Of a DNA stretch of 32,000 nt, positions 8,596-26,156 are shown piece after piece. The first letter of the stretch is position 1; each line of letters begins with the position of its first letter. A program made the position numbers and the translations under genes. This stretch comes from Candidatus Altimarinota bacterium (lineage in GTDB: Bacteria; Patescibacteriota; Gracilibacteria; UBA1369), in NCBI GenBank assembly GCA_041659405.1, contig JBAZYK010000013.1, positions 1 through 32,000 on the forward strand, in the 5' to 3' direction. Below the pieces are notes generated by a model, which saw nothing but the letters and a program-made list of their open reading frames with translations, did no database searches and was not told where the DNA came from.

Positions 8596-8701
8596 GTGTA
8601 AAGTATAAAGTATTACTTCATGGTTGTCAATGGGCATTATTTTGATTTCAATGCAGATACAAGTTAACCATCGAATGATGTGTACACAATACGCATGGAA
8701 T

Positions 8702-8712
8702 TCTGTTACAAT
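8702..8712 (+). promoter_or_regulatory. Candidate extended -10 promoter element (TCTGTTACAAT) for the exonuclease gene
   Basis: TGtTACAAT at 8704-8712, 30 nt upstream of the ATG at 8742. Same 11-mer as at 5902-5912. The -35 region is weak, as expected for extended -10 promoters. Confidence 0.4.
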
Positions 8713-8741
8713 CAATTTCGTACAATTTATAAATATCCCCC

Positions 8742-12500: not shown

Positions 12501-13043
12501 CAGATAATTTTTATTTTCTTTCAGAATTTCCCGCAGTGTCTTTGGATCAAGCCCGCCTTTTTTCAGTTCACCGATTTTTTTGATGATGTCACGAAGGTAC
12601 GTATAGCCCTGTTCCGGATTATAGGATCTTAGCAGCGTGTCGTGCTTTAACGCCTCCAAGATTTTTTCCACAATTTTATACTGAACCAGTTCATCGGCAG
12701 GATTAAAAGAAGCCCCCTGATAAAAAAACTCCGGATTTCGGTTAATGATTTCCGAACCAAAACTATGAAAAGTGTGAATGGCCACCCTATAAGCTTCCTG
12801 CCCAATCAGACCGGCAAGCCTTTTGCGCATGTTTACAGCCGCCGAATCGGTAAAAGTAAGACAAAGTATGGAAGAGGGAAGTGTATCCGTAGAACGCAAA
12901 ATATTGGCAACCCTTAAACTTAAAAGCTCCGTTTTGCCGGATCCCGGCCCCGCAATCACCAAAACCGGCCCATCTATTGTATCCACAGCCCTTTTCTGCT
13001 CGGCATTCAGGTTCTGATATCTTTCTGAAAAGTGATTATTCAT
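9558..13043 (-). CDS. UvrD/PcrA/AddA-type SF1 helicase fused to a C-terminal RecB-family PD-(D/E)XK nuclease
   Basis: 1161 aa. Walker A 'AGPGSGKT', motif II 'VDEFQDT', 'NYRSTQPIL', 'AHKAKGLEFENVFV', 'YVTLTRAKRNLYL'. C-terminal 'GKIDRI ... LVFDYKTGK ... NQLIFYKIL' gives the D / D-x-K / QxxxY nuclease motifs. Confidence 0.85.
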   Translation of the reverse strand: MNNHFSERYQNLNAEQKRAVDTIDGPVLVIAGPGSGKTELLSLRVANILRSTDTLPSSILCLTFTDSAAVNMRKRLAGLIGQEAYRVAIHTFHSFGSEIINRNPEFFYQGASFNPADELVQYKIVEKILEALKHDTLLRSYNPEQGYTYLRDIIKKIGELKKGGLDPKTLREILKENKNYLEQVNGFFPEIFSARMSKKTLEQIAGLLEKLKNVPMQPRTKVLPYKPIGTQLIDSLELAFGDSMSGEKPDTKPITVWKNEYLKKNDQNLPSLKELENIKKHFELCEIYEKYQQELRKEGYFDFDDMLMDTAEVIAKNPELRYNLQERYLYVLVDEFQDTNAVQMQLLDLLLDAEVNERRPNILAVGDDDQAIYKFQGANLENILNFHQKYLNPELVVLQKNYRSTQPILDLVRKIILTGNERLEARLPDQIKKELQSANTKLTNGEILEKEFQTGFEELAWIAETIKHKIEVEKVPPSEIAVIAPKHKILEETAKVLDYFGIPVAYERKKDLLEQKHLREIILMLRFVSTMLLKGQKEADDFLPEILSFEFWGIERLEVWKISVQASHERKLWMEVMLSSDNEKIKAIAEFFLDLGIAAKAGTAEEIIDLITGSTQEKNLLDEDGMALPKEESGFTEPSSKFQSPYKKYYFSNERFENSRLDYLDFLQSLQAFVKKIRQHRGTETLTVKDVVEFVELHETHHLSMHHKSAFNDEEKAVNLMTAHKAKGLEFENVFVLHCQEDFWIDRKSDKLSFPANIPLSPESDSVEDPLRLFYVTLTRAKRNLYLCRHIYSPKGNEQIRLRFLEEGEFEKKKRENISLEQVEGYREEYAANKGLEKLLELQFEVSRHEVRNIDENDLLKGLIKNYKLSVTHLNNFLNIVDGGPQKFLEQNLLKFPQKLTTSNAFGSAMHAALQELLVTMKRTNEVPELEFLLQEFEKSLLKQRLNQKDFAHLLEKGRDHLKIYYEKRRADFNAKDQAEFDFQQQGVVLGKAEITGKIDRIRYDEDKKEILVFDYKTGKPLQDWQGKQDFEKIKAWKNRNQLIFYKILVENARDFKGRYKVRNGFLEFLQPINDEIKLLELNISEEETEKMKKLIQVVYRKIVDLDFPDVTDYEKNVEGIQCFVDNLLAEWTKPKNDSDNFDAGAPEFTAQDYEMAGEGL

Positions 13044-13105
13044 TATTTAGTTTAAATTTTGTCGCTACTGGGCTATATTCTATCAGGCTTTTTTGATTAC
13101 TGCAT

Positions 13106-14563
13106 ATGTTTGAACAATCCTTTAAAAATATCGACGATATTCTCCACAAAGATGCCGGTGCATCAAGTGAGCTTGATTACGTAGAACAGACCTCGTGGAT
13201 CCTTTTTTTGAAGTATCTTGATGACCTGGAAAAGGATAAAAAGACCGAAGCATCGCTTGCCGGGAAAAAATATAAAGATATTATTGATCCAAAGTTTCGT
13301 TGGGAAGTTTGGGCTGCGCCAAGAACTACAGATGGTAAATTAGACCATCACAAAGCCCTTTCAGGCGATGATTTAAAAGATTTTGTTGATCACCAGCTTT
13401 TTCCATATCTCAAAAAATTCAAGTCGGAAGCCGAAAGTCCGGACACCATTCAATATAAAATTGGTGAAATTTTTAGTGAGATCAAAAACAAGATCCAGAG
13501 CGGCTACAACCTGCGTGAAGTTTTGAATATTATTGACAGTATGCGCTTTCGTTCGCAGACAGAAAAGCACGAACTTTCGCACCTGTATGAAGGAAAAATT
13601 AAGAATATGGGTAATGCCGGCAGAAATGGCGGAGAATACTACACTCCACGTCCGCTTATTAAAACGATTGTTAAGGTTGTCGCTCCAAAAATCGGCGATA
13701 AAATTTACGATGGAGCCGTTGGTTCCGCGGGATTTTTGGTGGAAGCTTTTGAGTATCTTAAGCAGAGCAAGGATCTTTCCACGCATGACATGGAGATTCT
13801 GCAGAAAAAGACCTTTTACGGCAAAGAGAAAAAGTCCCTCGCTTACGTTATTGGCATCATGAACATGGTTTTGCATGGAATTGAAGCGCCAAACATTATT
13901 CACACCAACACTCTTGCCGAAAACCTAGCCGATATTCAGGAAAAAGATCGTTATGATGTTGTCCTGGCTAATCCGCCATTTGGTGGCAAAGAAAGGGCCG
14001 AAGTCCAACAAAATTTCCCCATAAAAACCGGAGAAACTGCGTTTCTGTTTCTTCAGCATTTTATAAAAATTCTAAAAGCCGGTGGCAAGGCGGGCGTTGT
14101 CATTAAAAATACTTTCCTTTCCAATACGGATAACGCCTCTGTTTCCCTCCGCAAGTTGTTGCTGGAAAGCTGCAATCTGCACAGCGTTCTGGATTTGCCC
14201 GGTGGAACCTTCACAGGCGCAGGCGTAAAAACAGTTATTTTGTTTTTCCAAAAAGGCACACCAACCAAGAAAGTTTGGTTTTACCAGCTAAACCTTGACC
14301 GCAATCTAGGCAAAACCAATCCACTTAACGAAAAAGACCTGGAAAAATTCGTGGAACTGCAAAAGACCAAAGCAGACAGCGAAAATTCATGGACGATAGA
14401 CGTCTCAAAAATTGACCAAAAAACTTTCGATCTATCGGTGAAAAACCCAAACAAAGGCGAAGAAGCCGCTTTGCGTGATCCAAAAGAAATTTTGGAGGAA
14501 ATGGGGAAATTGGATAAAGAAAGTGAGCAGATTTTGAAGAAAATTGAGGGGTTTATTTCGTAG
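13106..14563 (+). CDS. hsdM: Type I restriction-modification system, DNA methyltransferase subunit M (N6-adenine)
   Basis: HsdM N-terminal domain pattern ('ILHKDAG...YVEQTSWILFLKYLDD'), 'GEYYTPRPL', SAM motif 'DGAVGSAGFL', catalytic 'NPPFGG'. Confidence 0.92.
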   Translation: MFEQSFKNIDDILHKDAGASSELDYVEQTSWILFLKYLDDLEKDKKTEASLAGKKYKDIIDPKFRWEVWAAPRTTDGKLDHHKALSGDDLKDFVDHQLFPYLKKFKSEAESPDTIQYKIGEIFSEIKNKIQSGYNLREVLNIIDSMRFRSQTEKHELSHLYEGKIKNMGNAGRNGGEYYTPRPLIKTIVKVVAPKIGDKIYDGAVGSAGFLVEAFEYLKQSKDLSTHDMEILQKKTFYGKEKKSLAYVIGIMNMVLHGIEAPNIIHTNTLAENLADIQEKDRYDVVLANPPFGGKERAEVQQNFPIKTGETAFLFLQHFIKILKAGGKAGVVIKNTFLSNTDNASVSLRKLLLESCNLHSVLDLPGGTFTGAGVKTVILFFQKGTPTKKVWFYQLNLDRNLGKTNPLNEKDLEKFVELQKTKADSENSWTIDVSKIDQKTFDLSVKNPNKGEEAALRDPKEILEEMGKLDKESEQILKKIEGFIS

Positions 14564-14629
14564 AAATCTGGTTTGAAATTGGCTAATTGCGGACTTATAA
14601 TTCATTTTTATACAAAATTTCGTATAATC

Positions 14630-14657
14630 TTGACTTATATTTCTATTTTGATATACT
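14630..14657 (+). promoter_or_regulatory. Candidate internal sigma70-type promoter in the hsdM-ATPase gap
   Basis: TTGACT (14630-14635), 16-nt spacer, TG (14649-14650) a TATACT (14652-14657). Lies 33 nt upstream of the ATG at 14691. A second TATAAT lies at 14623-14628. Confidence 0.4.
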
Positions 14658-14690
14658 GTTTGTGTAATATAAGTAATAACTTATCATCAA

Positions 14691-15893
14691 ATGATACATT
14701 CATTTTCCTGCAAAAATTTCTACTCATTTGCCGAATATGCCAGCGTAAAATTTTTAGTGAACGATAAGGTTCCCGCAAAAGAAGCATATTTAAAATCAGA
14801 ATCAGGCGAACGTGTGTCCAAGGCTATGGTCGTTATAGGTCCAAATGCATCCGGTAAAACCAATTTGCTCAAAATTCCGCCGTTTTTAAAATGGTTGATT
14901 GTGGATTCTTTTAATACTAAGCCGGAAGATGAAATACCAATTAAGCCTTTTTTATTTCGTGATTTAGAAAATAAACCAACTGAGTTGTCCGTTGAATTTG
15001 AAATGAATGGCGATATTTATTCTTACTTTTTTGCTCTTTCCGCAAAACGAATTATCAAAGAGGAGTTAAAGGTGAAAAATAAAACCAAACAGAAAACGAC
15101 CACTAAAACTCTTTTTGTTCGTAACTGGAATGAAAAACAACAACAATATGAGTTAAACGATAAAAATTTTAATTTGCCCAAAGGATTTGAAAATGAAAAC
15201 TTTTTACGCTCCAACGCCAGCCTTATTGGCTCCGCCATGCGCTTAAATCATGAACTTAGCCAGGAGATTGGGAAATATTGGCAAAAAATTGAATCAAATG
15301 TTTATGAAGGTGGTCTTCGCACAAATCATATGCACGATTTTCGTGAAGCATTGTCTTTTTTTAGCGATAACGAACCTTTAAAAAAAGAAGCGGAAAAACT
15401 TTTGGCCCGCTACGATATAGGTTTGGAGGCATTTAATATTACAAAAGAAAAAAAAGAAGGGCGCACGCGCGTCGATGCACGCGCGGTACATTCCTTTTCG
15501 GGTCACAAATATGAGTTGCCGATTGAGTATGAATCGTCCGGAACACGCCAGCTTTTCATTCTTTTAAGTACAATTTTACAGGTTTTATCAAATGGAGGGA
15601 TAGCAGTATTGGATGAATTTGATGTTAATCTTCATCCTGACATGGTGTCGGCCTTATTCGATCTTTTTGTTTCACCAGCTACGAATCCCCATAACGCCCA
15701 AATTATTTTCAGTACGCACAGCCATCGCATTTTGAGCGAATTAGACAAATACCAGATTATTTTGACTGAAAAAAATGAGAATGGCAGCAGTGAAGCTTGG
15801 CGATTGGACGAAATGTCCGGTGTGCGTGCGGATGATAATTATTACACCAAATACATTGCCGGAGCATACGGCGCTATACCAAAAATTGATTAA
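14691..15893 (+). CDS. ABC-type (AAA_21/AAA_15-like, RloA/OLD-ATPase-like) ATPase
   Basis: 400 aa. The 'MIHSFSCKNFYSF' start is typical of this family. Walker A 'GPNASGKTN', signature-like 'ESSGTRQLF', Walker B 'IAVLDEFDVNLHP', H-loop 'IFSTHS'. Confidence 0.8.
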   Translation: MIHSFSCKNFYSFAEYASVKFLVNDKVPAKEAYLKSESGERVSKAMVVIGPNASGKTNLLKIPPFLKWLIVDSFNTKPEDEIPIKPFLFRDLENKPTELSVEFEMNGDIYSYFFALSAKRIIKEELKVKNKTKQKTTTKTLFVRNWNEKQQQYELNDKNFNLPKGFENENFLRSNASLIGSAMRLNHELSQEIGKYWQKIESNVYEGGLRTNHMHDFREALSFFSDNEPLKKEAEKLLARYDIGLEAFNITKEKKEGRTRVDARAVHSFSGHKYELPIEYESSGTRQLFILLSTILQVLSNGGIAVLDEFDVNLHPDMVSALFDLFVSPATNPHNAQIIFSTHSHRILSELDKYQIILTEKNENGSSEAWRLDEMSGVRADDNYYTKYIAGAYGAIPKID

Positions 15894-15904
15894 CCCGCTC
15901 CGTC

Positions 15905-16438
15905 ATGTCCAGATCAAACCCCTACAAGAAGGCAAAAAGAGAAGCAAAGAAAACCATTCTTTTCTATGGTGAAGGAGAGGCGGAAAGCATTTTCTTAAAA
16001 CATTTAAAGAAAATGTACGCCAATAATAGCGGAATTGCGGTAACAATTCGCAATGGACACGGGGGAACAGCCGAAATTATTGTTCATAAAGCCATTCAAT
16101 ATCCTGGTGATTTTGACAGGAGAGTTGTAGTGTTGGACAACGATAAGCTAAAGCAGGAAATGGAGCAGGCCAGAAAGTTAGCAGGGAAATGCGAAATTGA
16201 TTTAATAGAGAACACTCCATGTTTGGAAGCACTACTTCAGTCAATTGTGGACGGTGGTAAGCCAAAAATGAACAAAAGTTCAGCCCAATACAAGAAAAAT
16301 TTTGAAAAAAATCATATCTGCAAAGAAAAGCGTCTTGATCCAAGAGAATATGAAAAATTATTCACTATAAAATTATTGGATAAACGGCGGAAAGAGATAA
16401 AGAATCTGGAGGTGATTATTGGGTTTATGGAGGGGTGA
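15905..16438 (+). CDS. RloB-like (TOPRIM-type) protein
   Basis: 177 aa. Basic N-terminus then 'TILFYGEGEAES' (TOPRIM glutamate; compare the RloB pattern 'ILIVCEGEKTE'), 'VVVLDND' (DxD), 'ENTPCLEALLQ' (compare the RloB pattern 'sNPCFElWlL'). Starts 11 nt after the ATPase stop. Confidence 0.65.
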   Translation: MSRSNPYKKAKREAKKTILFYGEGEAESIFLKHLKKMYANNSGIAVTIRNGHGGTAEIIVHKAIQYPGDFDRRVVVLDNDKLKQEMEQARKLAGKCEIDLIENTPCLEALLQSIVDGGKPKMNKSSAQYKKNFEKNHICKEKRLDPREYEKLFTIKLLDKRRKEIKNLEVIIGFMEG

Positions 16439-16500
16439 TTTGAAGAAAGCAATGAGGATTAATCGCCACACTGAAAAATAAATAATTATTAAAAATTTAC

Positions 16501-17355
16501 ATGAGTAGAATATTTGATTTTAAAAAAAGATTTGGGCAAGAAGTAAATATTGATGACCTCAAAAAAGATTTTATAAACAAGATTAGCCATTTTTTAATGG
16601 AAGAGCTAGATGGAAAAATCGGTTCATTTTATAGTGACAGAACTAAATCTATTTTTGATTTTGTTGCTATGGAGTTTAGCTGTAATCCATCAAATTTGAT
16701 ACAAAAATACAATAGCAATAGTTTTGGCCCTACTCTCTCTAGGCCCACTTTTTCTATATTCTCTGGAAATGATTTTGAAAAAACGCTTTTATTGATTGAA
16801 GTTTTTTATGATTATTTCAGACGTTCTGACGACTATGAAAAAGAATTTTGGATAGAAGAAATCGATAAAACAGTACTATTAGCTCTTAGTCAGCCAATTT
16901 CGCTTGGTATTTCTTGGCGTAATGGTAGATTTTATCCAGAAGGGGTGAAAGAATTCGATGAGAAATTGATTTCAGATGTATTGATATGGCTTGAAAACAA
17001 ACCAAAAATCAAAGCACTTTATCAAAATGCTCTCGATCATTACTCTAAATCGATAAATGATCCAATTAAGAGGAAAGATGTGTTTAGTAATGCTTTTCAG
17101 GCTGTCGAAAAGCTTACAAAAGAATTTCTAGAAACTTCAACGAATGCTTTTGATAACAATTTTAACGCTTTAATAAAAAAACTCGACCTTCATAAAGAAT
17201 GGAGTAAAATATTTAATTCTTACAAGGAATTGAGTAAGGAGTTTGGTAGGCATGGTGGAAATAATGATAATTTTATTCCAGAACAAGCTGATACAGAAGC
17301 CTTTTTATATTTATCAGGATTAATTATGAGGCTAATTCTTCAAAAAATATTATGA
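16501..17355 (+). CDS. Hypothetical protein, 284 aa (possible degenerate Abi_C/HEPN-like C-terminus)
   Basis: Long AT-rich ORF with an ATG start, same strand as the operon. Its stop overlaps the next gene's start (ATGA at 17352-17355). No motif I can assign firmly. The tail 'FGRHGGNN-x10-EAFLYLSGLIMRLIL' is laid out like Abi_C-type tails but lacks a canonical Rx4-6H. Confidence 0.6.
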   Translation: MSRIFDFKKRFGQEVNIDDLKKDFINKISHFLMEELDGKIGSFYSDRTKSIFDFVAMEFSCNPSNLIQKYNSNSFGPTLSRPTFSIFSGNDFEKTLLLIEVFYDYFRRSDDYEKEFWIEEIDKTVLLALSQPISLGISWRNGRFYPEGVKEFDEKLISDVLIWLENKPKIKALYQNALDHYSKSINDPIKRKDVFSNAFQAVEKLTKEFLETSTNAFDNNFNALIKKLDLHKEWSKIFNSYKELSKEFGRHGGNNDNFIPEQADTEAFLYLSGLIMRLILQKIL

Positions 17356-18335
17356 GTGAAAGATCAATTGAAGTAATTTCTATCCATTTCAATGTTCCGA
17401 GTCATTATTTACTGCTTAGTGAATTTATTGAAACAGCAAATGATGTAGAACAAATATTGCAAGAATTTAATTTTAAATTCTTTGATGCCAAACTTAATAT
17501 TCAGATTTTAGTTTTACCTCCAGAGGAGGGGAGTTTTCTTAAAAAACTGGGCATATTTTTTGCATTACCAGTTTGCGTTTTATCATGGGGGTTTCTAGAA
17601 AGCGACATAGGAAAAGCTTACATAAAAGGCCTAACAGGTAATGAACCTGCTTATTGGGCAGAAATTGCCGGTGAAGGTACCGCAAAGGAGTTAATAATTT
17701 TAAAAGAATCAGTTAAGGGGTTTCTAGAAAAAAATAATAACACTTTAGAGCAAGCTGGGATCAAAATTAATGAATTTCCATTTGCTTATAAGGCACGAAA
17801 TAATTTTTACAACATGTGCTTAAAAAGTGAGGAAATCTCAGGAGTAGAATTTAATAATTCTGGTTGTTTCGATATTAAAAGAGTTAATTTCCCTAACTAT
17901 TTTACAAAGGAAATTGATAAGCCAGATGGTAAAAAATCTAAATCTGTATTTAGGCTGCACAGACTAGTAATTGTTGCACCTGTTATAAGTGGAGGTAGTT
18001 CTGCTCAATGGAAGACGCGAGATGCAAAAACACTAAATCCATTAAATTTTTTTCTTAAGGATGAGGATTTTTATGATGGAATTTTATCCGGAAAATATCC
18101 GCTTAAAGAAACAGGAAACGACGATATTATCACAGTATGCATCGAATATAAAATACATGAAGAAAATGGACAAGAAAAAGTTTACGAAAGAAGTGCTATC
18201 AAAGTATACCAATTTAATAATATCAAGATAGCTGAGATTCCTACAGATCTAGAACTCATGGCATTTAAAGAATCAAAACATTTTGAAGATAAAGAAAAAG
18301 AAAATAGAAATGAAAATCAGCCTTCATTATTTTAA
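17352..18335 (+). CDS. Hypothetical protein, 327 aa, one hydrophobic segment, Lys/Glu-rich tail
   Basis: ATG overlaps the upstream stop by 4 nt. Ends 9 nt before hsdS. Hydrophobic stretch 'LGIFFALPVCVLSWGFL'. C-terminal 'KESKHFEDKEKENRNENQ'. No recognisable catalytic motif. Confidence 0.6.
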   Translation: MSERSIEVISIHFNVPSHYLLLSEFIETANDVEQILQEFNFKFFDAKLNIQILVLPPEEGSFLKKLGIFFALPVCVLSWGFLESDIGKAYIKGLTGNEPAYWAEIAGEGTAKELIILKESVKGFLEKNNNTLEQAGIKINEFPFAYKARNNFYNMCLKSEEISGVEFNNSGCFDIKRVNFPNYFTKEIDKPDGKKSKSVFRLHRLVIVAPVISGGSSAQWKTRDAKTLNPLNFFLKDEDFYDGILSGKYPLKETGNDDIITVCIEYKIHEENGQEKVYERSAIKVYQFNNIKIAEIPTDLELMAFKESKHFEDKEKENRNENQPSLF

Positions 18336-18344
18336 CTATAACCT

Positions 18345-19547
18345 ATGGTCAAAAAAACTATCCAGACTAATTGGCAAACCAAAAAACTCGATGAAGTCTG
18401 TGATTTAATAACTTGTGGCGTGGCTGCTAGGCCTAATTATGTTGTGAATGGTACTCCATTTCTTTCTGCAAAAAATGTAAAAAATGGCCAAGTAATTTGG
18501 AATGGTTTTAATTGTATTTCTGAAAGTACTCATAAAGAATTAACGAAAAATAATAAACCCATGGTTGGCGATATATTGTATACACGCGTAGGTAGCTATG
18601 GAGAAGCAGCAGTTGTTGAGGATAATATTGAATTTAGTATATTTGTTAGCCTTACCTTAATTAAGGTAAATAAGAATTTATTAAATAATTATTTTTTAAA
18701 ATATTATCTTAATTCGAGTTATATAAAAAGTTTGGCAAAGAGCAGTATTAGCAGTTCTGGTGTCGGTAATTTAAATGTTGGGTCAGTTCGAGATTTTCCA
18801 ATATCTTTCCCCCCCATTCCCGAACAACGCCGCATCGTAAAAATCCTCGATGAAGCTTTTGAAAAAACCGCAAAAGCCAAAGAAAACGCCGAAAAAAATC
18901 TACAAAATGCCAAAGAGCTTTTTGAATCGTATTTACATAGTGTTTTTACCAATTCGGGAAAGGATTGGGAGGAGGAAGAATTGGGTGATATTTGTGAAGT
19001 TGAGTATGGATACACCGAAAAAGCAAAAAACAACGGTGACTATCGGTTTGTAAGGATCACTGACACAGACGAAAATGGTTTACTGACAAAAGAAAATAAG
19101 ATGTACATAGATTCTTTTGACGGGGCGGATAAATATGTTTTGAATGACGGAGATTTGCTCATGGCTCGAACGGGTGCTTCTGCAGGTAATGTATTATTAT
19201 TTGAGGGTGATGAAGATGCAGTATTTGCATCGTACCTAATTAGAATGAAATTTAAAAAAGAAATATTAAGTAAGCTGTATTGGTATTTCTCAAAATCTAA
19301 AATTTATTGGGATCAAGTTAGCCAACTATCCGCTGGTTCGGCGCAACCTCAATTTAACGGCGGCGCACTAAAGCAGGTCATTTTTTCTTATCCAAAATTT
19401 TTCTCTGAACAAAAGGCCATCGTCGCTCACCTCGACGCCCTCTCCGCCGAAACCAAAAAGCTCGAATCAATTTATAAACAAAAGCTCACTAATCTGGAAG
19501 AGCTCAAGAAATCAGTGCTCAAAAAAGCATTTTCTGGTCAATTGTAG
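18345..19547 (+). CDS. hsdS: Type I restriction-modification system, specificity subunit S
   Basis: 400 aa. Two variable target-recognition regions are separated by the conserved helical spacer 'PPIPEQRRIVKILDEAFEKTAKAKENAEKNLQNAKELFESYL'. The protein ends in the second conserved region 'EQKAIVAHLDALSAETKKLESIYKQKLTNLEELKKSVLKKAFSGQL'. Confidence 0.9.
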   Translation: MVKKTIQTNWQTKKLDEVCDLITCGVAARPNYVVNGTPFLSAKNVKNGQVIWNGFNCISESTHKELTKNNKPMVGDILYTRVGSYGEAAVVEDNIEFSIFVSLTLIKVNKNLLNNYFLKYYLNSSYIKSLAKSSISSSGVGNLNVGSVRDFPISFPPIPEQRRIVKILDEAFEKTAKAKENAEKNLQNAKELFESYLHSVFTNSGKDWEEEELGDICEVEYGYTEKAKNNGDYRFVRITDTDENGLLTKENKMYIDSFDGADKYVLNDGDLLMARTGASAGNVLLFEGDEDAVFASYLIRMKFKKEILSKLYWYFSKSKIYWDQVSQLSAGSAQPQFNGGALKQVIFSYPKFFSEQKAIVAHLDALSAETKKLESIYKQKLTNLEELKKSVLKKAFSGQL

Positions 19548-19570
19548 ATTTTTATAATTAATTTAATTTT

Positions 19571-20140
19571 ATGGCTAATATTATCACAAAAACAGCTGAA
19601 GAATTGTCAGAAACGGATGATCTTGTTATTGATGAGCTATTGCATTCATCAAATGTATTTATTGTGTTACATCCCACTGAGGATAAGGAGGATTTAAATA
19701 TTGTTAAAGAATTGGGAAATGCCTTGAATTATATGGGTAACATGTTTGCATATGAAGAACTAGGGGGAAAAGGAGGTGGGGGTTGTGATTTATTACCATC
19801 CCTTTCAGATGTTATATTTTATTCGGTTGCTTTTGTCGTAACAACATCTGCAACAACTTTTATTACTGAGTTAACAAAAGATATATATAAATCTACATTA
19901 AAAAAGTTGTTTGATAAAAAAAAGAATTCTTCCTATGAAGATGGTAAGTTTGTGCTCAAATTGACAACGTCTGCAGGCTCAACCATTACTTATTATTTCC
20001 AAAAATATTTAACTAATGATGAATTTATTGAAGCATTAGTACTTGTGCGGGATCATTTTATTAATTTTGAAAATAGCCATAAAATTGAATATCTTGATTT
20101 TATATTTGATAGAAAAGAAAATTCCTGGATGCCGCTATAG
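19571..20140 (+). CDS. Hypothetical protein, 189 aa, Gly-run plus one hydrophobic segment
   Basis: Very AT-rich ORF, ATG 23 nt after the hsdS stop. 'GGKGGGGCDLLPSLSDVIFYSVAFVVTTSATTFI' is a glycine run followed by a putative membrane segment. No known motif recognised. Confidence 0.5.
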   Translation: MANIITKTAEELSETDDLVIDELLHSSNVFIVLHPTEDKEDLNIVKELGNALNYMGNMFAYEELGGKGGGGCDLLPSLSDVIFYSVAFVVTTSATTFITELTKDIYKSTLKKLFDKKKNSSYEDGKFVLKLTTSAGSTITYYFQKYLTNDEFIEALVLVRDHFINFENSHKIEYLDFIFDRKENSWMPL

Positions 20141-20198
20141 AATTTTGTAGTTTATATCCATCTGCATAAATATTAAGTTTTCTTATCGGCTTTGTATA

Positions 20199-20317
20199 CT
20201 CGAGCCACGAAATGTCCTCGAACCAAAAAACTCGAAGCAATCTATCGCCAAAAACTCGCAAAGCTGGAAGAACTCAAGAAATCCGTCCTGAAAAAAGCTT
20301 TTGCGGGGGAATTGTAA
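20199..20317 (+). pseudogene. hsdS 3'-terminal remnant (scar 1): ...RTKKLEAIYRQKLAKLEELKKSVLKKAFAGEL*
   Basis: By hand alignment, 20222-20317 matches the intact hsdS end 19452-19547 codon for codon: 76/96 nt and 25/31 aa identical, including the stop position. No TRD and no plausible start. The frame is broken just upstream (about 20219) relative to hsdS. Confidence 0.8.
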
Positions 20318-20336
20318 ATTATGTTACACTTAAAAC

Positions 20337-20507
20337 ATGAGCAAACTATTACCAAAAAAACGAGGCGACACACTGGTTAAAACCATAGAGAAAAAGTATG
20401 GCGTTGATTTAGGGTATCGGTCAGACGCTCAGCTTCATACTGTGCTAAAAAAAGAAGGCCTGCCCTCTCTTTCCAAGCTTTTGAAAATGGTACACAAAGA
20501 GATATAG
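20337..20507 (+). CDS. Small hypothetical protein, 56 aa (MSKLLPKKRGDTLVKTIEKKYGVDLGYRSDAQLHTVLKKEGLPSLSKLLKMVHKEI)
   Basis: ATG at 20337, TAG at 20505-20507. Below the 60-aa cutoff of the ORF track, found by reading. Ends 9 nt before the next gene. Helical, SAP/HTH-like appearance ('LHTVLKKEGLPSLSKLL'), but no firm family. Confidence 0.35.
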   Translation: MSKLLPKKRGDTLVKTIEKKYGVDLGYRSDAQLHTVLKKEGLPSLSKLLKMVHKEI

Positions 20508-20516
20508 CTGAAATAT

Positions 20517-21050
20517 ATGAGCAATTTCGATTTTATTAAAGATGAAAATCTCCGTAACACACTGGATGATGCCATTGAGTTTATTTATGTACTTTTTAAA
20601 AGATCTAAAGAAGAAGGGCAAAAAGAATTATACAAAGAGGAAACACATAGAATAATAATTTTATATGTTGTGTCGGCAATAGAAGCCGTCTTGCTTTACT
20701 TCTATAAAGATCGAGGCGAAAGAATTAAACATCCAGAATATAAGTTTGTTCAGGCATTGTCCCCAAAGTTTGGACACAGCGAGAAAAAGGGTTGCCCTTT
20801 AGTAATCGCGGTTCAAGAAAAAAAAGAGAAAGATCAAATAGGCATGCGCGATCTCGTAACTTTTTTTAAAGCTAAAAAACTCATAGAAGAAAAAATGGCA
20901 AATGACATTTTAGAATTAAATGACGTAAGAAATACATTTCATTTAAGTAAGCCACGAGCTAAAAGTTGCGATGTGAAGCAGGTTGAGGCTGCGCTTCAGT
21001 TATTAGTGCATACAATTGAAAATGCACCAAAGGCATTAGAGAAAAAATAA
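20517..21050 (+). CDS. Hypothetical all-alpha protein, 177 aa, HEPN-like layout with non-canonical 'RNTFH'
   Basis: N-terminal 'FIKDENLRNTLDDAIEFIYVLF ... IILYVVSAIEAVLLYFY' and C-terminal 'ELNDVRNTFHLSK' resemble small HEPN-type proteins seen next to R-M genes. The R-to-H spacing is 3 residues, not the canonical 4-6. Confidence 0.5.
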   Translation: MSNFDFIKDENLRNTLDDAIEFIYVLFKRSKEEGQKELYKEETHRIIILYVVSAIEAVLLYFYKDRGERIKHPEYKFVQALSPKFGHSEKKGCPLVIAVQEKKEKDQIGMRDLVTFFKAKKLIEEKMANDILELNDVRNTFHLSKPRAKSCDVKQVEAALQLLVHTIENAPKALEKK

Positions 21051-21061
21051 AAAACATTACT

Positions 21062-21253
21062 ATGACTGATGAAGAAATAGCTATCAAACAGCAAGCGAAC
21101 GAATTTGCCCAAAAGACCAGGAAGGAAGACACTTCCAGTGATTTTTCCAAGTTTTTTCGTAAAGCGTCTTATGCTCAGAAAAGGAAGGTGTTTTTGGAGG
21201 TAGCCAAGAAGGCAAGCAAGGAACAACTAGAAGTTATTCAGAGTGTTCAATAA
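21062..21253 (+). CDS. Small hypothetical protein, 63 aa, charged/helical
   Basis: ATG 11 nt after the preceding stop. 'MTDEEIAIKQQANEFAQKTRKE...KASKEQLEVIQSVQ'. Its stop codon (21251-21253) sits exactly at the junction with hsdS scar 2. Confidence 0.4.
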   Translation: MTDEEIAIKQQANEFAQKTRKEDTSSDFSKFFRKASYAQKRKVFLEVAKKASKEQLEVIQSVQ

Positions 21254-21290
21254 ATCCATCCTAAAAAAGGCATTTAGCGCTAGCCTATAG
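21252..21290 (+). pseudogene. hsdS 3'-terminal remnant (scar 2): KSILKKAFSASL*
   Basis: 13 codons, AAA TCC ATC CTA AAA AAG GCA TTT AGC GCT AGC CTA TAG. Compare the intact hsdS end KSVLKKAFSGQL* (9/12 aa and 25/39 nt identical by hand count; Ser and Leu use different codon families). Similarity stops abruptly upstream of 21252. Confidence 0.5.
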
Positions 21291-21300
21291 CAATTTCTTT

Positions 21301-21356
21301 AAATAGGTACAATTTAGGTATAAAATAGGTATAATTAGACCTATTTCTACTATAAT
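21301..21356 (+). promoter_or_regulatory. hsdR upstream region: three tandem 11-bp units containing TAGGTA, plus overlapping -10-like hexamers
   Basis: TAGGTA at 21304, 21315 and 21326 (exact 11-bp phasing; units AAATAGGTACA / ATTTAGGTATA / AAATAGGTATA). A partially inverted GACCTA lies at 21338-21343. TACAAT at 21308, TATAAT at 21330 and TATAAT at 21351. The hsdR ATG is at 21371. Confidence 0.4.
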
Positions 21357-21370
21357 TTGAAAAATAACCT

Positions 21371-23722
21371 ATGAACGAATCAGAAACCCGCGCGGAATAT
21401 ATTGACCCCAAGCTTAAACAAAGTGGCTGGGGAGAAATAGAAGGATCAAAAATTCTTCGTGAATTTCGCATTACAGAGGGCAGAATTCAGGTTGGCGGCA
21501 CGCGCATGAAGCCGGAAATTGCCGATTATGTTTTAGTGTACAAAAATGTGAAACTTGCCGTGATTGAGGCTAAAAAAGAAGATTTAAGTGCTACCGAAGG
21601 CGCGGCTCAGGCAAAAGCTTATGCTGAAAAATTGAAGATTGATCATACCTACGCAACTAATGGTAAGAAAATTTACGAGATTTCCATGAAAACCGGCGTG
21701 GAGGGCTATGTGGACTCTTTTCCAACTCCGGAAGAATTATGGAACAAGGTTTTTGCGCGTCACAATGAATGGCGCGAGAAATTTTTGGCAGTTCCGTCGG
21801 AAGGAGAATACGGGAAACGGTATTATCAAGAACTTGCCATTAATAGGGCATTAGAGGCTATTGCTGAAGAAAAGAAACGAATCTTGCTAACTTTAGCCAC
21901 CGGAACCGGCAAGACGATTATCGCCTTCCAGATAGCCTGGAAACTCTTCCAGACCCGTTGGAATATAAAGCGTGATGGAAGCAGAAGACCAAGGGTTCTT
22001 TTTCTTGCGGATCGCAATATTTTGGCAGATCAGGCTTTCAACTCATTTTCATCTTTTGCTGAGGACGCATTGGTGCGCATTAACCCCGCAGACATAAAGA
22101 AAAAGGGGAATGTGCCAACAAATGGCAGTATTTTCTTCACGATTTTCCAGACTTTTATGAGTGGGCCGAATAATACGCCTTATTATGGCGATTATCCTGC
22201 TGATTTCTTTGATTTTATTATTATTGATGAGTGTCACCGTGGCGGTTCAAATGACGAATCAAACTGGCGGGGGATTCTGGAGCATTTTTCTCCGGCTGTT
22301 CAGCTCGGTTTAACCGCAACTCCAAAACGAAAAGATAATATTGATACTTACAAATATTTTGGCGAACCGGTTTACATTTATTCGCTTAAAGAAGGGATCA
22401 ATGATGGCTTTTTAACGCCATTTAAAGTCAAAAGGATTCAAACGACTCTTGATGAGTACGTTTATACTTCCGATGATCAGATTGTTGAGGGCGAGGTGGA
22501 AGAAGGGAAAATTTATGAAGAATCCGATTTTAATAGAATTATCGAGATCAAGGAGCGCGAAGCAAAACGCGTTCAAATCATGCTGGACGAAATCAATCAA
22601 AACGAGAAAACGATTGTGTTCTGCGCGTCGCAGGATCATGCGCTTGCGGTACGGGACTTAATCAATCAAACCAAAAAAAGTTCAGATCCAAATTATTGTG
22701 TGCGTGTAACTGCTAACGATGGTGCGCGCGGTGAGCAGTTTTTACGGGCTTTTCAGGATAATGAAAAAACTATTCCAACAATTCTGACCACTTCCCAAAA
22801 GCTGTCCACGGGTGTTGATGCCCGCAATATTCGCAATATTGTTTTGATGCGTCCGATCAACTCCATGATTGAATTTAAGCAGATTGTAGGGCGCGGAACG
22901 CGTCTTTTTGATGGAAAAGAGTATTTTACGATCTTTGATTTTGTCGATGCCTATAAGCATTTTTCTGATCCACAGTGGGACGGCGAGCCAATCGATGAAA
23001 CAACCGAAAATAAAGAGCCAAAAAATACGAATTATGATGTCGATCCTTCTAAAAACAGTGGATTAGCTTTAGCTGATGGGGATTTTGAAGGTTTTGAACC
23101 AAAGAAAAAATTGAAAATAAAATTGCGGGACGGCAAAGAACGTGAAATCAAACACATGATCTCTACTTCCTTCTGGAGCGCCGACGGCAAGCCAATTTCA
23201 ACGGAAGAGTTTTTGCAAAATATGTTTGGGACTCTGCCGGAGTTTTTTGCCAATGAAGATGAATTGCGGAAAATCTGGTCAAATCCAAAAACAAGAAAAA
23301 TGTTTTTAGAGAAGATTGCGGATCTTGGATACGGGAAAGATCAGCTAATAACATTACAAAAAATGATCGACGCCGAAAAAAGCGATATTTTTGATGTACT
23401 TGCCTATATTTCCTTTGCCACACCGCCAATTTCCAGAAAAGAACGTGTAGATGAAGCAAAAGATGCCATTCTAAAGCCACTTGATGAACAGCAAAAAGAT
23501 TTCTTTGGATTTGTGCTGAACGAATATGTTGAAAATGGAGTAGAAGAGCTCGACGAAGAAAAATTGCCTGATCTGCTAAATCTGAAATATCACGCAATCT
23601 CTGATGCTGAAAAAGCGCTTGGTGGAGTCGAAAAGATCAGGTCGACCTTTTTCAATTTTCAAAAGGATTTATACTTAAACAAGCGTAAAGTTGAGGTGAA
23701 AAATGTGAAGTCGCCAAAGTGA
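21371..23722 (+). CDS. hsdR: Type I restriction enzyme, restriction/translocase subunit R (EcoEI-type C-terminal domain)
   Basis: N-terminal PD-(D/E)XK 'IADYVLVYKNVKLAVIEAKKE'. SF2 motifs 'LATGTGKT', 'IIIDECHR', 'LGLTATPKR', 'QIVGRGTR'. The C-terminal 'SDIFDVLAYISF...' region resembles the EcoEI R-protein C-terminal domain. Confidence 0.92.
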   Translation: MNESETRAEYIDPKLKQSGWGEIEGSKILREFRITEGRIQVGGTRMKPEIADYVLVYKNVKLAVIEAKKEDLSATEGAAQAKAYAEKLKIDHTYATNGKKIYEISMKTGVEGYVDSFPTPEELWNKVFARHNEWREKFLAVPSEGEYGKRYYQELAINRALEAIAEEKKRILLTLATGTGKTIIAFQIAWKLFQTRWNIKRDGSRRPRVLFLADRNILADQAFNSFSSFAEDALVRINPADIKKKGNVPTNGSIFFTIFQTFMSGPNNTPYYGDYPADFFDFIIIDECHRGGSNDESNWRGILEHFSPAVQLGLTATPKRKDNIDTYKYFGEPVYIYSLKEGINDGFLTPFKVKRIQTTLDEYVYTSDDQIVEGEVEEGKIYEESDFNRIIEIKEREAKRVQIMLDEINQNEKTIVFCASQDHALAVRDLINQTKKSSDPNYCVRVTANDGARGEQFLRAFQDNEKTIPTILTTSQKLSTGVDARNIRNIVLMRPINSMIEFKQIVGRGTRLFDGKEYFTIFDFVDAYKHFSDPQWDGEPIDETTENKEPKNTNYDVDPSKNSGLALADGDFEGFEPKKKLKIKLRDGKEREIKHMISTSFWSADGKPISTEEFLQNMFGTLPEFFANEDELRKIWSNPKTRKMFLEKIADLGYGKDQLITLQKMIDAEKSDIFDVLAYISFATPPISRKERVDEAKDAILKPLDEQQKDFFGFVLNEYVENGVEELDEEKLPDLLNLKYHAISDAEKALGGVEKIRSTFFNFQKDLYLNKRKVEVKNVKSPK

Positions 23723-23823
23723 GCATTTTCTTCTTTACACGCCCCTTCCATATTTCGCCAAAATAGGCTAAATTATTGGCCTTGTATTATTTTTGGCCGC
23801 CTGGCCTCTACGCCCCTCACACT

Positions 23824-25287
23824 ATGGCTAACAACGAAACAATCATCAGCTTTGACGCAGTCTCATTTGAATATCTTCATGATAAACCGCTATTAAACGA
23901 AGCCAGCTTTTCTGTCCGCAGAGGGAGCAAAGTGACTTTTATGGGCCAAAACGGCGCCGGTAAAAGTACGATTTTTAAACTTTTGGCTGGAACCTTAAAG
24001 CCTCAATCAGGACACGTAAACGTTGTTCCTCGCCTTACCATCGCCACTGCGCATCAGGTTATGCCGGCAACTGACCGCGAATTAACCGTAAGCGAATTTT
24101 TTCAAAAATGTTTCCACGAAAAAAAGTACGATCTTGATCGCCGCATTGATGAAATTCTTGAAGTGGTAAATCTTCATGCTCCACATGACAAAATCGTTAA
24201 AGCTTTTTCCGGAGGACAGCAGGCCAGATTATTGCTTGCTGCAGCCCTTATTCAGGATCCTGATTTGTTGCTTCTGGATGAACCGACCAATAATCTTGAT
24301 AAAACCGGTATTGAACATTTGACCGACTTTCTAATCAACTACCCAAAAACGTGCATAGTTATTTCCCATGATGAAGACTTTTTGAATGCTTTCACCGAAG
24401 GAGTTTTGTATTTGGATATTTTTACCCGCAAAGTTGAACAGTATGTTGGTAATTATTTTGATGCCGTTGCGGAAATTGCCATTCGTATCGAAAAGGAAAA
24501 TCGCAAAAATGCCCAGCTGGCAAAAGAGATTCAAGAGAACAAAGAGCAGGCCAATGTTTTCGCCCATAAAGGTGGTAAATTAAGACTTGTGGCAAAACGC
24601 ATGCGTGAAAAAGCTGAAGAGTTTGAGGAAAACAAGGTCGATGTCCGTCGTGAAGATCAAACCATTCGCAATTTTACGATCCCCGCGCAGGAAGATCTTT
24701 CCGGTGAAATTTTGAAAATTTCTTCATTGATGGTTATAAAAAATCATCAGCCAACTACAAAAAAGGCCAAAATTTCTTTAAGAAAAAATCAGCATTTGCT
24801 TCTTTCCGGCCCAAACGGAATCGGCAAAAGTACGCTGCTTGAATCTTTGGCGCAGGGGACTGCTACAGGCGCAAAGATCGATCCAAGTGTCAGAGTTGGC
24901 TATTATCGCCAGGATTTTTCCACGCTTAATTTTGAGCACACAGTCCACCAGGCGCTTCACGAAGCCCTAAAGTTGTCAGGAGAAGAACTCCATGAAGAAA
25001 TTCTTCGTTCGGTGGCATCAGGCTTTCTTATCACCAGAGAACTGATTAACAGCAAAATCGGCAACATTTCCGAAGGTCAAAAAGGGCTGGTTGCGTTTGC
25101 CTGTCTGGTTTTGCAAAAGCCGGGACTTTTAATTTTGGATGAGCCGACCAACCATATTAATTTCCGCCATCTTCCGATTATTGCCGCCGCGCTGGACCAA
25201 TATGAAGGAGCCATGATTCTGGTTTCCCACGTGCCGGAATTCGTTGAACAGATCAGAATTGATGAAATTCTTGATCTTAATAAATAA
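23824..25287 (+). CDS. ABC-F family ATPase (two ABC cassettes, no membrane domain)
   Basis: Walker A 'GQNGAGKST' and 'GPNGIGKST'. Signatures 'FSGGQQ' and 'ISEGQK'. Walker B 'LLLLDEPTNNLD' and 'LLILDEPTNHIN'. Charged linker between cassettes. Start moved from the TTG at 23776 to the ATG at 23824 (MANNETIISFD...). Confidence 0.85.
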   Translation: MANNETIISFDAVSFEYLHDKPLLNEASFSVRRGSKVTFMGQNGAGKSTIFKLLAGTLKPQSGHVNVVPRLTIATAHQVMPATDRELTVSEFFQKCFHEKKYDLDRRIDEILEVVNLHAPHDKIVKAFSGGQQARLLLAAALIQDPDLLLLDEPTNNLDKTGIEHLTDFLINYPKTCIVISHDEDFLNAFTEGVLYLDIFTRKVEQYVGNYFDAVAEIAIRIEKENRKNAQLAKEIQENKEQANVFAHKGGKLRLVAKRMREKAEEFEENKVDVRREDQTIRNFTIPAQEDLSGEILKISSLMVIKNHQPTTKKAKISLRKNQHLLLSGPNGIGKSTLLESLAQGTATGAKIDPSVRVGYYRQDFSTLNFEHTVHQALHEALKLSGEELHEEILRSVASGFLITRELINSKIGNISEGQKGLVAFACLVLQKPGLLILDEPTNHINFRHLPIIAAALDQYEGAMILVSHVPEFVEQIRIDEILDLNK

Positions 25288-25332
25288 CCGCTCCGATTTT
25301 GAGCGTTTCGCCAGGCCATAAATCACTTAATC

Positions 25333-25355
25333 GGCCCTTCCAATCCGGAAGAGCC
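25333..25355. terminator. Possible bidirectional hairpin between convergent genes
   Basis: GGCCCTTCC (25333-25341) / loop AATCC / GGAAGAGCC (25347-25355): 8 of 9 pairs. T-rich sequence follows on the + strand. Lies 46 nt after the ABC-F stop and 10 nt after the small minus-strand ORF's stop. Confidence 0.3.
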
Positions 25356-25365
25356 TGAAAATGAT

Positions 25366-25467
25366 TTATTTTCTTGCTGCTTTCTTAGCTCTTTTTGCTT
25401 CCAATCTTTCTTTTGGATTTAGCTTTGGTGCTTTTTTTCCTTCTCTTTTTGGTTTGTCTCCAGCCAT
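25366..25467 (-). CDS. Possible very small basic protein, 33 aa (MAGDKPKREGKKAPKLNPKERLEAKRAKKAARK)
   Basis: ATG at 25467-25465, TAA at 25368-25366. Found by reading; below the ORF-track cutoff. Lys/Arg-rich, downstream of engB on the same strand. Could be spurious. Confidence 0.25.
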   Translation of the reverse strand: MAGDKPKREGKKAPKLNPKERLEAKRAKKAARK

Positions 25468-25583
25468 GGTGAAAAGATTAAAAAATATTTGATGGATAAA
25501 AATCCATTACCAAAATAATAAACCAAATGTCCGTAATTTCATACAAGAAATGAAATTATTTACAGTCAGCCTATGTTCAACAA

Positions 25584-26156
25584 TTAATATTTGGAAATTT
25601 CCTCAGTCAGCGCGCCAATGCCAATGTTTTTTACTGATGAGTATGGGAAAACTTTATGGCCACCAACGGCATCCTGAATTTTTTTAAGCTTCATTTTATA
25701 TTCGGAATTTTTGATTTTGTCGATTTTATTCGCAACAACCACAATGTTTTTTTGAGCTGCTTCCAAACACTCAAGCATCTCTAAATCGTTAGCGGTTACA
25801 CCTATATTCGCATCAATGATCAGTACAATTATTTTTTGCTCATAGCGCGACTCAAACAAATACCAGTTGATCAATTTTTTCAGTTTGTCGCGTCCTGCTC
25901 CGGAAACTCTGGCAAATCCATATCCCGGTAAATCCACCAGATAAAATTTATTATTAATCAAAAATAAATTTATTTGCTGGGTGCGCCCCGGAAAAGCACT
26001 GGTTCTGGCCAAATCTTTCTGTTTGGTCAAAGAATTAATGATACTGGATTTACCCACATTGGACCTGCCAATAAACGCAATTTGTGGCCTGTCGTCGTCC
26101 AAATTCCAATCTTCATCAACTATGCCCTTTAAAAATTTTGCAGATTTTATATTCAT
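25584..26156 (-). CDS. engB: Ribosome-biogenesis GTPase EngB/YihA/YsxC
   Basis: 190 aa. G1 'GRSNVGKSSIIN', G3 'DLPGYGFA', G4 'NKIDK'. Size and order are typical of EngB. Confidence 0.88.
   Translation of the reverse strand: MNIKSAKFLKGIVDEDWNLDDDRPQIAFIGRSNVGKSSIINSLTKQKDLARTSAFPGRTQQINLFLINNKFYLVDLPGYGFARVSGAGRDKLKKLINWYLFESRYEQKIIVLIIDANIGVTANDLEMLECLEAAQKNIVVVANKIDKIKNSEYKMKLKKIQDAVGGHKVFPYSSVKNIGIGALTEEISKY

Follow-up and report, generated by a model that had tools for sequence, protein, structure and literature searches.

Why does a Type I restriction-modification (R-M) operon carry eight additional genes between its own subunit genes, and do they form one system with the R-M enzyme or several systems of their own? 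This question is raised by a locus at 13106-23722 on the forward (+) strand of contig JBAZYK010000013.1 (assembly GCA_041659405.1, Candidatus Altimarinota bacterium), of which positions 1 to 32,000 were analysed and are called the window here. Our results showed that the additional genes, which we call cargo, are a stack of about five independent modules and not one coupled system. We consider it probable that the locus is an R-M operon with about five autonomous accessory modules, which would act as independent second-line defences and would be kept together for joint carriage and expression.

The + strand of the locus carries eleven consecutive open reading frames (ORFs) in the same orientation, namely hsdM, hsdS, hsdR and the eight cargo ORFs. 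hsdM (13106-14563, +) encodes an intact Type I methyltransferase of 485 amino acids (aa), which matched PADLOC MTase_I over residues 1-484 (E=2.6e-162) and Pfam HsdM_N (3.5e-9) and N6_Mtase (1e-65). The intact specificity subunit encoded by hsdS (18345-19547, +, 400 aa) matched Pfam Methylase_S in two stretches (2e-37) and PADLOC Specificity_I over residues 5-400 (1e-50). hsdR (21371-23722, +, 783 aa) encodes an intact restriction/translocase subunit with matches to PADLOC REase_I (1.4e-135) and to Pfam HSDR_N/HSDR_N_2, ResIII, Helicase_C and EcoEI_R_C. With Pfam and PADLOC together, the methyltransferase domains of HsdM, the two target-recognition domains of HsdS, and the nuclease region and superfamily 2 (SF2) translocase of HsdR were all found. 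These full-domain matches bear out the initial annotation, in which the three genes had been described as intact and co-oriented. By its gene content, the locus is a complete and working-looking Type I R-M operon, for which methylation and restriction activity are predicted.

hsdM and hsdS are separated by 3,781 nucleotides (nt) with four ORFs (the M-S slot; 14691-15893, 15905-16438, 16501-17355 and 17352-18335), and hsdS and hsdR by 1,823 nt with another four (the S-R slot; 19571-20140, 20337-20507, 20517-21050 and 21062-21253). The successive gaps from hsdM to hsdR are 127, 11, 62, -4, 9, 23, 196, 9, 11 and 117 nt, and those of 196 and 117 nt contain remnant 1 and remnant 2 of an hsdS 3' end, respectively. 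The coordinates thus agree with the slots of 3.8 kb and 1.8 kb, the four ORFs in each, the gaps and the common strand that had been reported before. The GC content of ORF4, ORF5 and ORF7 is 0.30-0.31 (0.30 for ORF4), which is below the 0.41 of hsdM and hsdR and therefore fits a foreign origin of these three genes. Rfam and tRNA scans of the window gave no match.

The modules are the AbiL pair, ORF4, ORF5, ORF7 and the s56/ORF8 cassette, plus the orphan ORF s63. Cargo of these families has been embedded in Type I loci recurrently and independently. An ORF4 homologue occupies the S-R slot of comparison locus L005 and another the M-S slot of L008 (on a Magasanikbacteria contig), where it adjoins a Shedu-type SduA_C gene; further ones stand directly beside hsdM or hsdS of the R-M family of the window (L104, L105, L116 and L117). 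ORF5 homologues were found in two loci: the one in L010 follows hsdM and precedes hsdS, and the one in L011, from a Pseudobdellovibrionaceae genome, has hsdS before it and hsdM after it. An ORF7 homologue occupies the S-R slot of a Type I locus that belongs to an unrelated family (L101/L102). No second cargo gene of the window was found in any of these loci. Solo copies away from Type I genes were also observed, in L003, L006 and L100 and on a 12-kb mobilizable Paracoccus plasmid, where a relative of ORF5 stands alone near a Type II R-M system.

The M-S slot begins with a pair of genes. The first (14691-15893, +, 400 aa) encodes an ABC/SMC-like ATPase of the AbiLi type, which matched PADLOC AbiLi (6.5e-72) and Pfam AAA_21 (5.9e-32); its translation contains a Walker A motif (G50-PNASGK-T57). 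The second (ORF3, 15905-16438, +, 177 aa) begins 11 nt after abiLi on the same strand and encodes an AbiLii/RloB-like TOPRIM protein (PADLOC AbiLii, 1.1e-8), with the TOPRIM-type residues E23-G-E25 and D78-N-D80 in its translation and a match to Pfam RloB of 30.7 bits, slightly below the 31.5-bit cut-off. Judged from these profiles and motifs, the pair is probably an AbiL system, RloAB-like, with both genes predicted to be intact, and the earlier description of an ATPase with a TOPRIM-like partner agrees with the PADLOC assignment to AbiLi/AbiLii. The ATPase also matched AriA-type ATPase models (2.4e-36), but the AbiLi model fits far better. Among the Pfam and PADLOC models, ORF3 matched only RloB and AbiLii, and no AriB or DUF4435 match was seen at E≤0.01. 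The proposal that accessory immunity genes of known kinds are nested here is supported for the rlo-like AbiL pair, but not for PARIS, whose AriB/DUF4435 component was not matched. AbiL, Campylobacter RloAB and PARIS have been grouped as systems of an ABC ATPase with a TOPRIM/OLD protein, the mechanism being established for PARIS only, and it has been asked whether AbiL and RloAB operate like PARIS (PMC13064643).

The six other cargo ORFs had been left without an assignable motif. This still holds for ORF7, which is uncatalogued, but not for ORF4 and ORF5, which distantly match PADLOC candidates, nor for ORF8, for which a HEPN fold is predicted. Profile and structure searches assigned no cargo protein to a housekeeping or metabolic family. 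The idea that the slots are a place for defence genes is supported, as the evidence from profiles, folds and context agrees.

ORF4 (16501-17355, +) encodes an all-alpha protein of 284 aa, a distant relative of PDC-S32 and a single-gene cargo. Its family comprises 59 clusters, all unnamed, among 5.8 billion, and 35 of 39 family members matched PDC-S32 of PADLOC (best E=2.2e-10). The AlphaFold2 (AF2) model (pLDDT 87.9) is all-alpha with one hairpin, and a fold search with this model gave no match in the PDB or in BFVD, a viral structure set. The invariant residues of the family include an E-x-G-R-H-x-G motif. ORF4 was also considered as a HEPN protein, and the candidate was rejected as too weak (three members matched Pfam DUF4145 at E~0.19, and two matched CARF-HEPN at ~1e-5 in the PADLOC family scan). 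A Pfam scan of each member of the ORF4 and ORF8 families gave nothing significant. ORF5 (17352-18335, +) is another single-gene cargo, which encodes a 327-aa protein distantly related to PDC-S42 (PADLOC, 1.7e-9). Six of the 20 members of its family, which comprises 20 clusters, matched PDC-S42. Its one hydrophobic segment spans residues 66-84 (Kyte-Doolittle 19-residue maximum 1.71), and ORF5 is possibly membrane-associated. PDC-S32 and PDC-S42 are candidates that were both derived from genes nested inside BREX, DISARM and Type I R-M loci (Payne et al., bioRxiv 10.1101/2024.01.29.577857); in our literature search, the two names were not found in any searchable paper or supplement.

ORF4 and ORF5 overlap by 4 nt (ATGA), and a two-gene system made of both was considered. 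It was ruled out, as their homologues never co-occur: among about 28 loci of ORF4 homologues with at least 1.2 kb of downstream sequence, none has an ORF5 homologue nearby. The overlap therefore does not mark a two-gene system. Profile-profile comparison revealed no relationship between ORF4 and ORF8 or between ORF5 and ORF7. Sequence searches against the PDB with single proteins and family profiles gave nothing for ORF4, ORF5, ORF8 or s56, and no member of the ORF4, ORF5 or ORF8 families was found in the IMG/VR viral contigs.

The S-R slot contains a two-gene cassette. ORF8 (20517-21050, +) encodes a 177-aa protein of a family of 115 clusters, mostly from Patescibacteria. In its AF2 model (pLDDT 88.8, pTM 0.80), a beta-hairpin is inserted into a helical bundle at residues 71-104. 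When this model was compared with the PDB by Foldseek, 31 of the 32 top matches were HEPN proteins (probability 0.72-1.0; E 0.01-0.54, none ≤0.001), including YutE, HepT/SO_3166, MntA-HepT, AF_0298, cyanobacterial HEPN toxins and Csm6. The modelled structure thus places ORF8 in the HEPN fold. The segment R138-N-T-F-H142 is invariant among 44 homologues and has three residues between R and H (Rx3H); the canonical HEPN motif is Rx4-6H (PMC3710099). None of the 44 family members matched a HEPN-clan Pfam model at E≤1. The gene directly upstream, s56 (20337-20507, +), encodes a conserved 56-aa partner. A small ORF of 56-57 aa, 84-92% identical to it, lies directly upstream of the ORF8 homologue in all six of the other loci (L013-L018), which come from two distinct neighbourhoods, and the ORF8 homologues there are only 55-61% identical. 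In these loci the cassette sits among RelB/YafQ and SocA-type toxin-antitoxin genes. ORF8 is most likely a latent RNase restrained by s56. Eleven nt after ORF8 follows s63 (21062-21253, +), an orphan ORF of 63 aa that was called as a gene on the source contig and is regarded as putative; no homologue was found in the comparison loci at E≤0.01. Searches of NCBIfam and PHROG gave no match for s56 or s63.

ORF7 (19571-20140, +, 189 aa) stands directly after hsdS and belongs to a rare, uncatalogued family with 22 representatives among 1.84 billion proteins. An E-K-G-G-G-G motif is conserved in the family, and a hydrophobic helix comes after it (Kyte-Doolittle 1.65 at residues 81-99). ORF7 of the window had no significant match in Pfam, PADLOC, NCBIfam or PHROG, and its family had none in PADLOC below E=0.004. 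Weak matches of the C-terminus (family profile positions 136-187) to ferritin chains (E from 4e-4) and MarR/MepR proteins in the PDB were also seen, which are probably helical-composition noise.

Relatives of the R-M operon were found by scanning one genome per species with HsdM. Eighty loci (L019-L098) have an HsdM 77-86% identical to that of the window, from more than 10 bacterial phyla and from two archaea of the DPANN group (L047, Woesearchaeota; L090, Pacearchaeota). This level of identity across phyla indicates that one Type I family has been transferred horizontally on a very wide scale. The gene order is M-S-R in all complete related loci, and their HsdR is 61-77% identical to that of the window over residues 1-768. 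Inserts, counted when longer than 300 nt, were surveyed in the 56 loci that are complete for all three genes. Such an insert lies between hsdM and hsdS in 23 of the 56 loci and between hsdS and hsdR in 37; 44 loci (79%) have one in at least one slot and 16 in both. The total insert of the window (3,781 + 1,823 = 5,604 nt) is the largest, followed by 5,538 and 5,316 nt.

The 56 complete loci contain 88 cargo ORFs of at least 60 aa, which fall into about 62 sequence clusters, and 85 of the 88 are co-oriented with the R-M genes. Together with eight of eight in the window, this argues that the co-orientation is not due to chance. The commonest cargo was Fic/SoFic (10), followed by PDC-S04/PDC-S24 (9), Schlafen AlbA_2 with HATPase_c_4 (PDC-S23; 6) and RhuM (PDC-S05; 4-5). 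AAA_21 ATPases (3), PD-(D/E)XK nucleases, and KilA-N and Bro-N proteins were also found, and transposases accounted for only three ORFs. The annotated cargo of the related loci thus consists mostly of defence genes, and the R-M family is a habitual cargo carrier, whose slots have repeatedly been loaded with foreign genes. The comparison of related loci that had been suggested showed that both slots vary, and no gene related to any cargo gene of the window was found in the 80 related loci.

Two of the loaded loci deserve description. L008/L110 (Ga0172379_10000803), which belongs to the R-M family of the window, contains hsdM, SduA_C (a Shedu-type nuclease), the ORF4 homologue, hsdS, a ParA-like ATPase, hsdR and DUF5655, with SocA_Panacea and RhuM genes downstream. 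L087 (Elusimicrobia, 11440-18210) has a 4-kb M-S insert and carries Schlafen-like/HATPase_c_4 cargo twice, once in each slot; the gene at 13646-15103 is one of the rare cargo genes on the opposite strand.

Expression signals were predicted by consensus scans. Two promoter-like sites are located in the gap between hsdM and abiLi (14573-14657, +): TTGAAA-17-TATAAT at 14573-14601, a strong promoter-like match (11 of 12 positions) in line with the promoter first proposed for this gap, and TTGACT-16-TATACT with an upstream TG at 14630-14657. A terminator-like hairpin matching the consensus follows hsdR at 23765-23782 (+). No other intergenic site of this kind was found on the + strand within 13106-23800, and there is none in the gaps from hsdM to hsdR. 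From the gene spacing and the lack of an intergenic terminator-like site before the end of hsdR, we infer that the cargo would be co-transcribed with the R-M genes. The R-M enzyme would then provide the first line of defence by cleaving unmodified incoming DNA, and the embedded modules, transcribed with it, would act as independent second-line defences of the abortive-infection or toxin type. Analogy to PARIS and OLD-type systems suggests that the ABC ATPase of the AbiL module may hold or regulate the TOPRIM nuclease; the s56/ORF8 cassette may be a HEPN RNase controlled by a small protein; and ORF5 and ORF7 are possible membrane-acting effectors. The arrangement would mainly serve joint transfer and joint expression rather than an obligatory physical coupling to HsdMSR.

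The S-R slot also records part of its own history. The initial annotation had noted two hsdS 3' scars there, and both were recovered with a hidden Markov model (HMM) trained on the C-terminal ends of 57 HsdS proteins. Remnant 1 (20222-20317, +; peptide TKKLEAIYRQKLAKLEELKKSVLKKAFAGEL) comprises the last ~31 codons and the stop codon of another hsdS allele (E=1.9e-19 at 20222-20314), and the stretch 20221-20320 matches the 3' end of hsdS (19451-19550) with 80% identity across 100 nt. Remnant 2 (21246-21290, +; peptide FNKSILKKAFSASL, then TAG) comprises the last 12-14 codons and the stop codon (E=1.5e-4 at 21246-21287). The order of the slot is hence hsdS, ORF7, remnant 1, s56-ORF8-s63, remnant 2 and hsdR, each remnant ending with its own stop codon. 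Because remnant 1 has 79% nucleotide identity to the resident hsdS end and is about as close to other alleles, it is a relic of a different or older hsdS and not of a recent duplication. With the same HMM, no hsdS remnant was found in the other 55 related loci except L033, where hsdS is broken; the remnants are therefore a peculiarity of the window locus and not a general mechanism of insertion. The slot appears to have been built by at least two successive recombination events (replacement or insertion) that used the conserved hsdS 3' region as homology, in an order that can be proposed from the arrangement, and each event at the hsdS 3' end would have left the truncated end of an older hsdS. 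The direct repeats 19451-19550 and 20221-20320 flank ORF7, and recombination between them could remove ORF7 and leave hsdS complete.

The conserved 3' region of hsdS is present three times in direct order, which could also suggest silent shufflon cassettes that switch the specificity of the R-M enzyme, the ORFs between them being incidental. This explanation is excluded for practical purposes and is given almost no weight here, because the repeats are direct and not inverted, the remnants (~31 and 12-14 codons) contain no target-recognition domain and the locus has no recombinase gene; remnant 1 is, moreover, only 79% identical to the resident hsdS end. The same remnants bear on another explanation, in which the cargo consists of addiction cassettes and mobile debris that are tolerated in the slots, enter by recombination at the hsdS and hsdR ends and bring little or no benefit against phages. 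Repeated recombination, which the two remnants show, the low GC of the cargo, the toxin-antitoxin surroundings of s56/ORF8 elsewhere, the few transposases in the slots of relatives and the hyper-variable cargo would all be expected of such passengers. However, transposases make up only 3 of the 88 cargo ORFs of the related loci, the families that recur are defence genes, whether validated or candidate (SoFic, AbiL-like ATPases, Schlafen-like proteins and RhuM), the co-orientation of 85 of these 88 ORFs suggests selection for expression with the operon, and all eight ORFs of the window are intact. We consider tolerated passengers an unlikely account of the locus, and one that is only partly distinct from the favoured explanation, as toxin-antitoxin and abortive-infection roles overlap.

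A closer relationship between cargo and enzyme is also conceivable. The modules could be silenced by the R-M enzyme and fire when a phage anti-restriction protein disables it, as in PrrC-EcoprrI or in PARIS with Ocr. The match of AbiLi to AriA-type models (2.4e-36), the published question whether AbiL and RloAB work like PARIS (PMC13064643), the link of PrrC and at least 16 HEPN clades to R-M loci (PMC3710099) and the tight spacing of the whole cargo on the R-M strand are in line with such guarding. However, an obligatory specific contact with this HsdMSR is unlikely, as every cargo family also occurs without a nearby R-M gene or inside unrelated Type I families. Neither an AriB/DUF4435 match nor a PrrC-type fusion of ATPase and HEPN was found in the cargo of the window, and this cargo is not shared with any of the 56 related loci. 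We regard guarding as improbable, to much the same degree as tolerated passengers. Since each family has members outside R-M loci or in R-M families unrelated to this one, joint carriage and expression of autonomous modules is favoured over obligatory coupling.

Several points weigh against the favoured explanation of autonomous, co-expressed defence modules. The defence function of ORF4, ORF5, ORF7 and s56/ORF8 and the RNase activity of ORF8 are putative. The match of ORF4 in the window to PDC-S32 is weak (2.4e-5, 22.5 bits), as is that of ORF5 to PDC-S42, which reaches 35.6 bits and covers residues 125-243 only; in the work of Payne et al. (bioRxiv 10.1101/2024.01.29.577857), assignments were made at ≥50 bits, and PDC-S32 and PDC-S42 are themselves only candidate defence genes. 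No Type I gene was found near the ORF4 homologue in 33 of 38 ORF4-family metagenome contigs, many of which are short, as many of the comparison contigs are, and all six other s56/ORF8 loci lie outside R-M loci. The Foldseek TM-scores of ORF8 are ~0.5 (target-normalised up to 0.69) with modest E-values, and the Rx3H of ORF8 is one residue short of the canonical spacing. The higher conservation of s56 than of ORF8 is the reverse of the usual toxin/antitoxin pattern and unusual for an antitoxin. s63 may not be a gene, and the promoter and terminator scans used a generic consensus from which the signals of the host may differ.

A bolder version can be put forward as a possible but rather doubtful one, somewhat above guarding or tolerated passengers. 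Here, s56/ORF8 would be a new HEPN branch, with Rx3H and a beta-hairpin, under the control of an ultra-conserved 56-aa partner instead of a nucleotidyltransferase and widespread in Patescibacteria; ORF7 would be a new small membrane-acting abortive-infection effector; and the hsdS 3' end would be a docking site for stacking and excising cargo.

The locus is flanked by ordinary chromosomal genes, which encode a UvrD/PD-(D/E)XK helicase-nuclease, an ABC-F protein, a YsxC-type GTPase, RecQ and MetRS. The neighbours at 23776-26156 recur beside Type I loci in three other Patescibacteria-type contigs (L005, 1103-2566; L021, 5445-7076; L036, 19619-20167), with ABC-F homologues 58-64% identical and a YsxC homologue 55% identical; this neighbourhood may be a hotspot of insertion that has been conserved, or a position shared since long ago. 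A Fic domain fused to a MerR-type helix-turn-helix (HTH) is encoded at 7591-8787 (-), three genes upstream of hsdM. Fic genes also adjoin the ORF4 homologues in L003 and L005, and Fic/SoFic is the commonest cargo of the related loci (10/88). An ORF of 543 aa at 5966-7597 (+) had no Pfam match and has a 36%-identical homologue at 162-1841 of L100, an unrelated contig, where it lies 6 kb from an ORF7 homologue.

The NCBI label of the metagenome-assembled genome (MAG) is Candidatus Gracilibacteria bacterium, and metagenome contigs carry identical proteins. Some Gracilibacteria read UGA as Gly, a code that could have fused ORFs here. It was ruled out, as TGA ends hsdR, ORF3 and ORF4 where their homologues end. 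Because the TGA stops match the ends of the homologues and long ORFs (up to 1,161 aa in the window) run unbroken under table 11, the ORF boundaries stand. The source is a standard-code lineage inside the loosely named Gracilibacteria group, with TGA as the stop in hsdR, ORF3, ORF4 and others. An ORF5-family protein (P0067) has W at positions conserved as G elsewhere (KWLTWHEP, AWENT and ATGWFLEK), and its source is probably a UGA=Gly (code 25) organism, the gene having been translated with UGA=Trp.

The genomes of candidate phyla radiation bacteria (Patescibacteria) are tiny, and classical defences are thought to be scarce in this group. The present member devotes ~10.6 kb to an R-M operon and its load of about five extra modules, and one widely transferred Type I family turns out to be a habitual carrier (79% of relatives loaded). 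The rule that embedded genes are defence genes is thereby extended to uncultured lineages. The new parts are the ORF7 family and the s56/ORF8 cassette, which are uncatalogued (s56 by NCBIfam and PHROG) and provide short, clonable candidates; ORF4 is notable as an all-alpha protein with no fold match in the PDB or the viral structure set. If validated, the candidates would add new families but no new principle.

Nested genes in Type I loci were described earlier, namely the Campylobacter rlo genes and PrrC. Like Campylobacter jejuni RloA/RloB and lactococcal AbiL, the window pairs, within a Type I locus, the gene of an ABC-type ATPase with a downstream gene for a small RloB/TOPRIM protein, but in Pfam RloB is matched only marginally, the host is a very distant organism and the pair is one of several modules. 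The logic of an ABC ATPase with a TOPRIM nuclease and the weak AriA-model matches of the ATPase recall PARIS (AriA-AriB); the AbiLi model, however, fits far better than AriA, and AriB/DUF4435 is not matched. The linkage of HEPN and R-M was catalogued in 2013 with PrrC as the paradigm (PMC3710099). As with PrrC-EcoprrI and RloC, which are anticodon nucleases of Type I loci, a HEPN-type protein is encoded inside the Type I operon, which suggests a second line of defence. Unlike PrrC and RloC, ORF8 is a protein of 177 aa with no ABC ATPase domain, with Rx3H, a 56-aa partner and relatives outside R-M loci, and AbiLi has no HEPN region. The best structural matches of the ORF8 model (5yep, 7bxo, 6m6w and 7ae8) point to HepT-MntA, which is likewise a small two-gene cassette among toxin-antitoxin genes; s56 is, however, too short for an MntA-like nucleotidyltransferase, and ORF8 has a beta-hairpin insertion, a shorter R-to-H spacing and no HEPN Pfam match.

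The closest precedent for the locus as a whole is the 'guilt-by-embedding' discovery method with experimental validation of Payne, Hughes, Fineran and Jackson, in which RefSeq genomes were screened with abundance cut-offs for genes inside Type I R-M, BREX, DISARM and Hma loci (bioRxiv 10.1101/2024.01.29.577857). The genes of that screen and the cargo of the window share the same-strand nesting between defence subunits and the mixture of many known defences with more than half of unknown function, and ORF4 and ORF5 match PDC-S32 and PDC-S42. The window differs in that its source is the MAG of an uncultured member of the Patescibacteria, its ORF4 and ORF5 are related to the PDC models only at a distance, and the ORF7 and ORF8 families are not in PADLOC. 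The embedding phenomenon is thus already published, and the window is a new and unusually loaded example of it, whose about five modules in one operon stand at the top of the range in 57 related loci.

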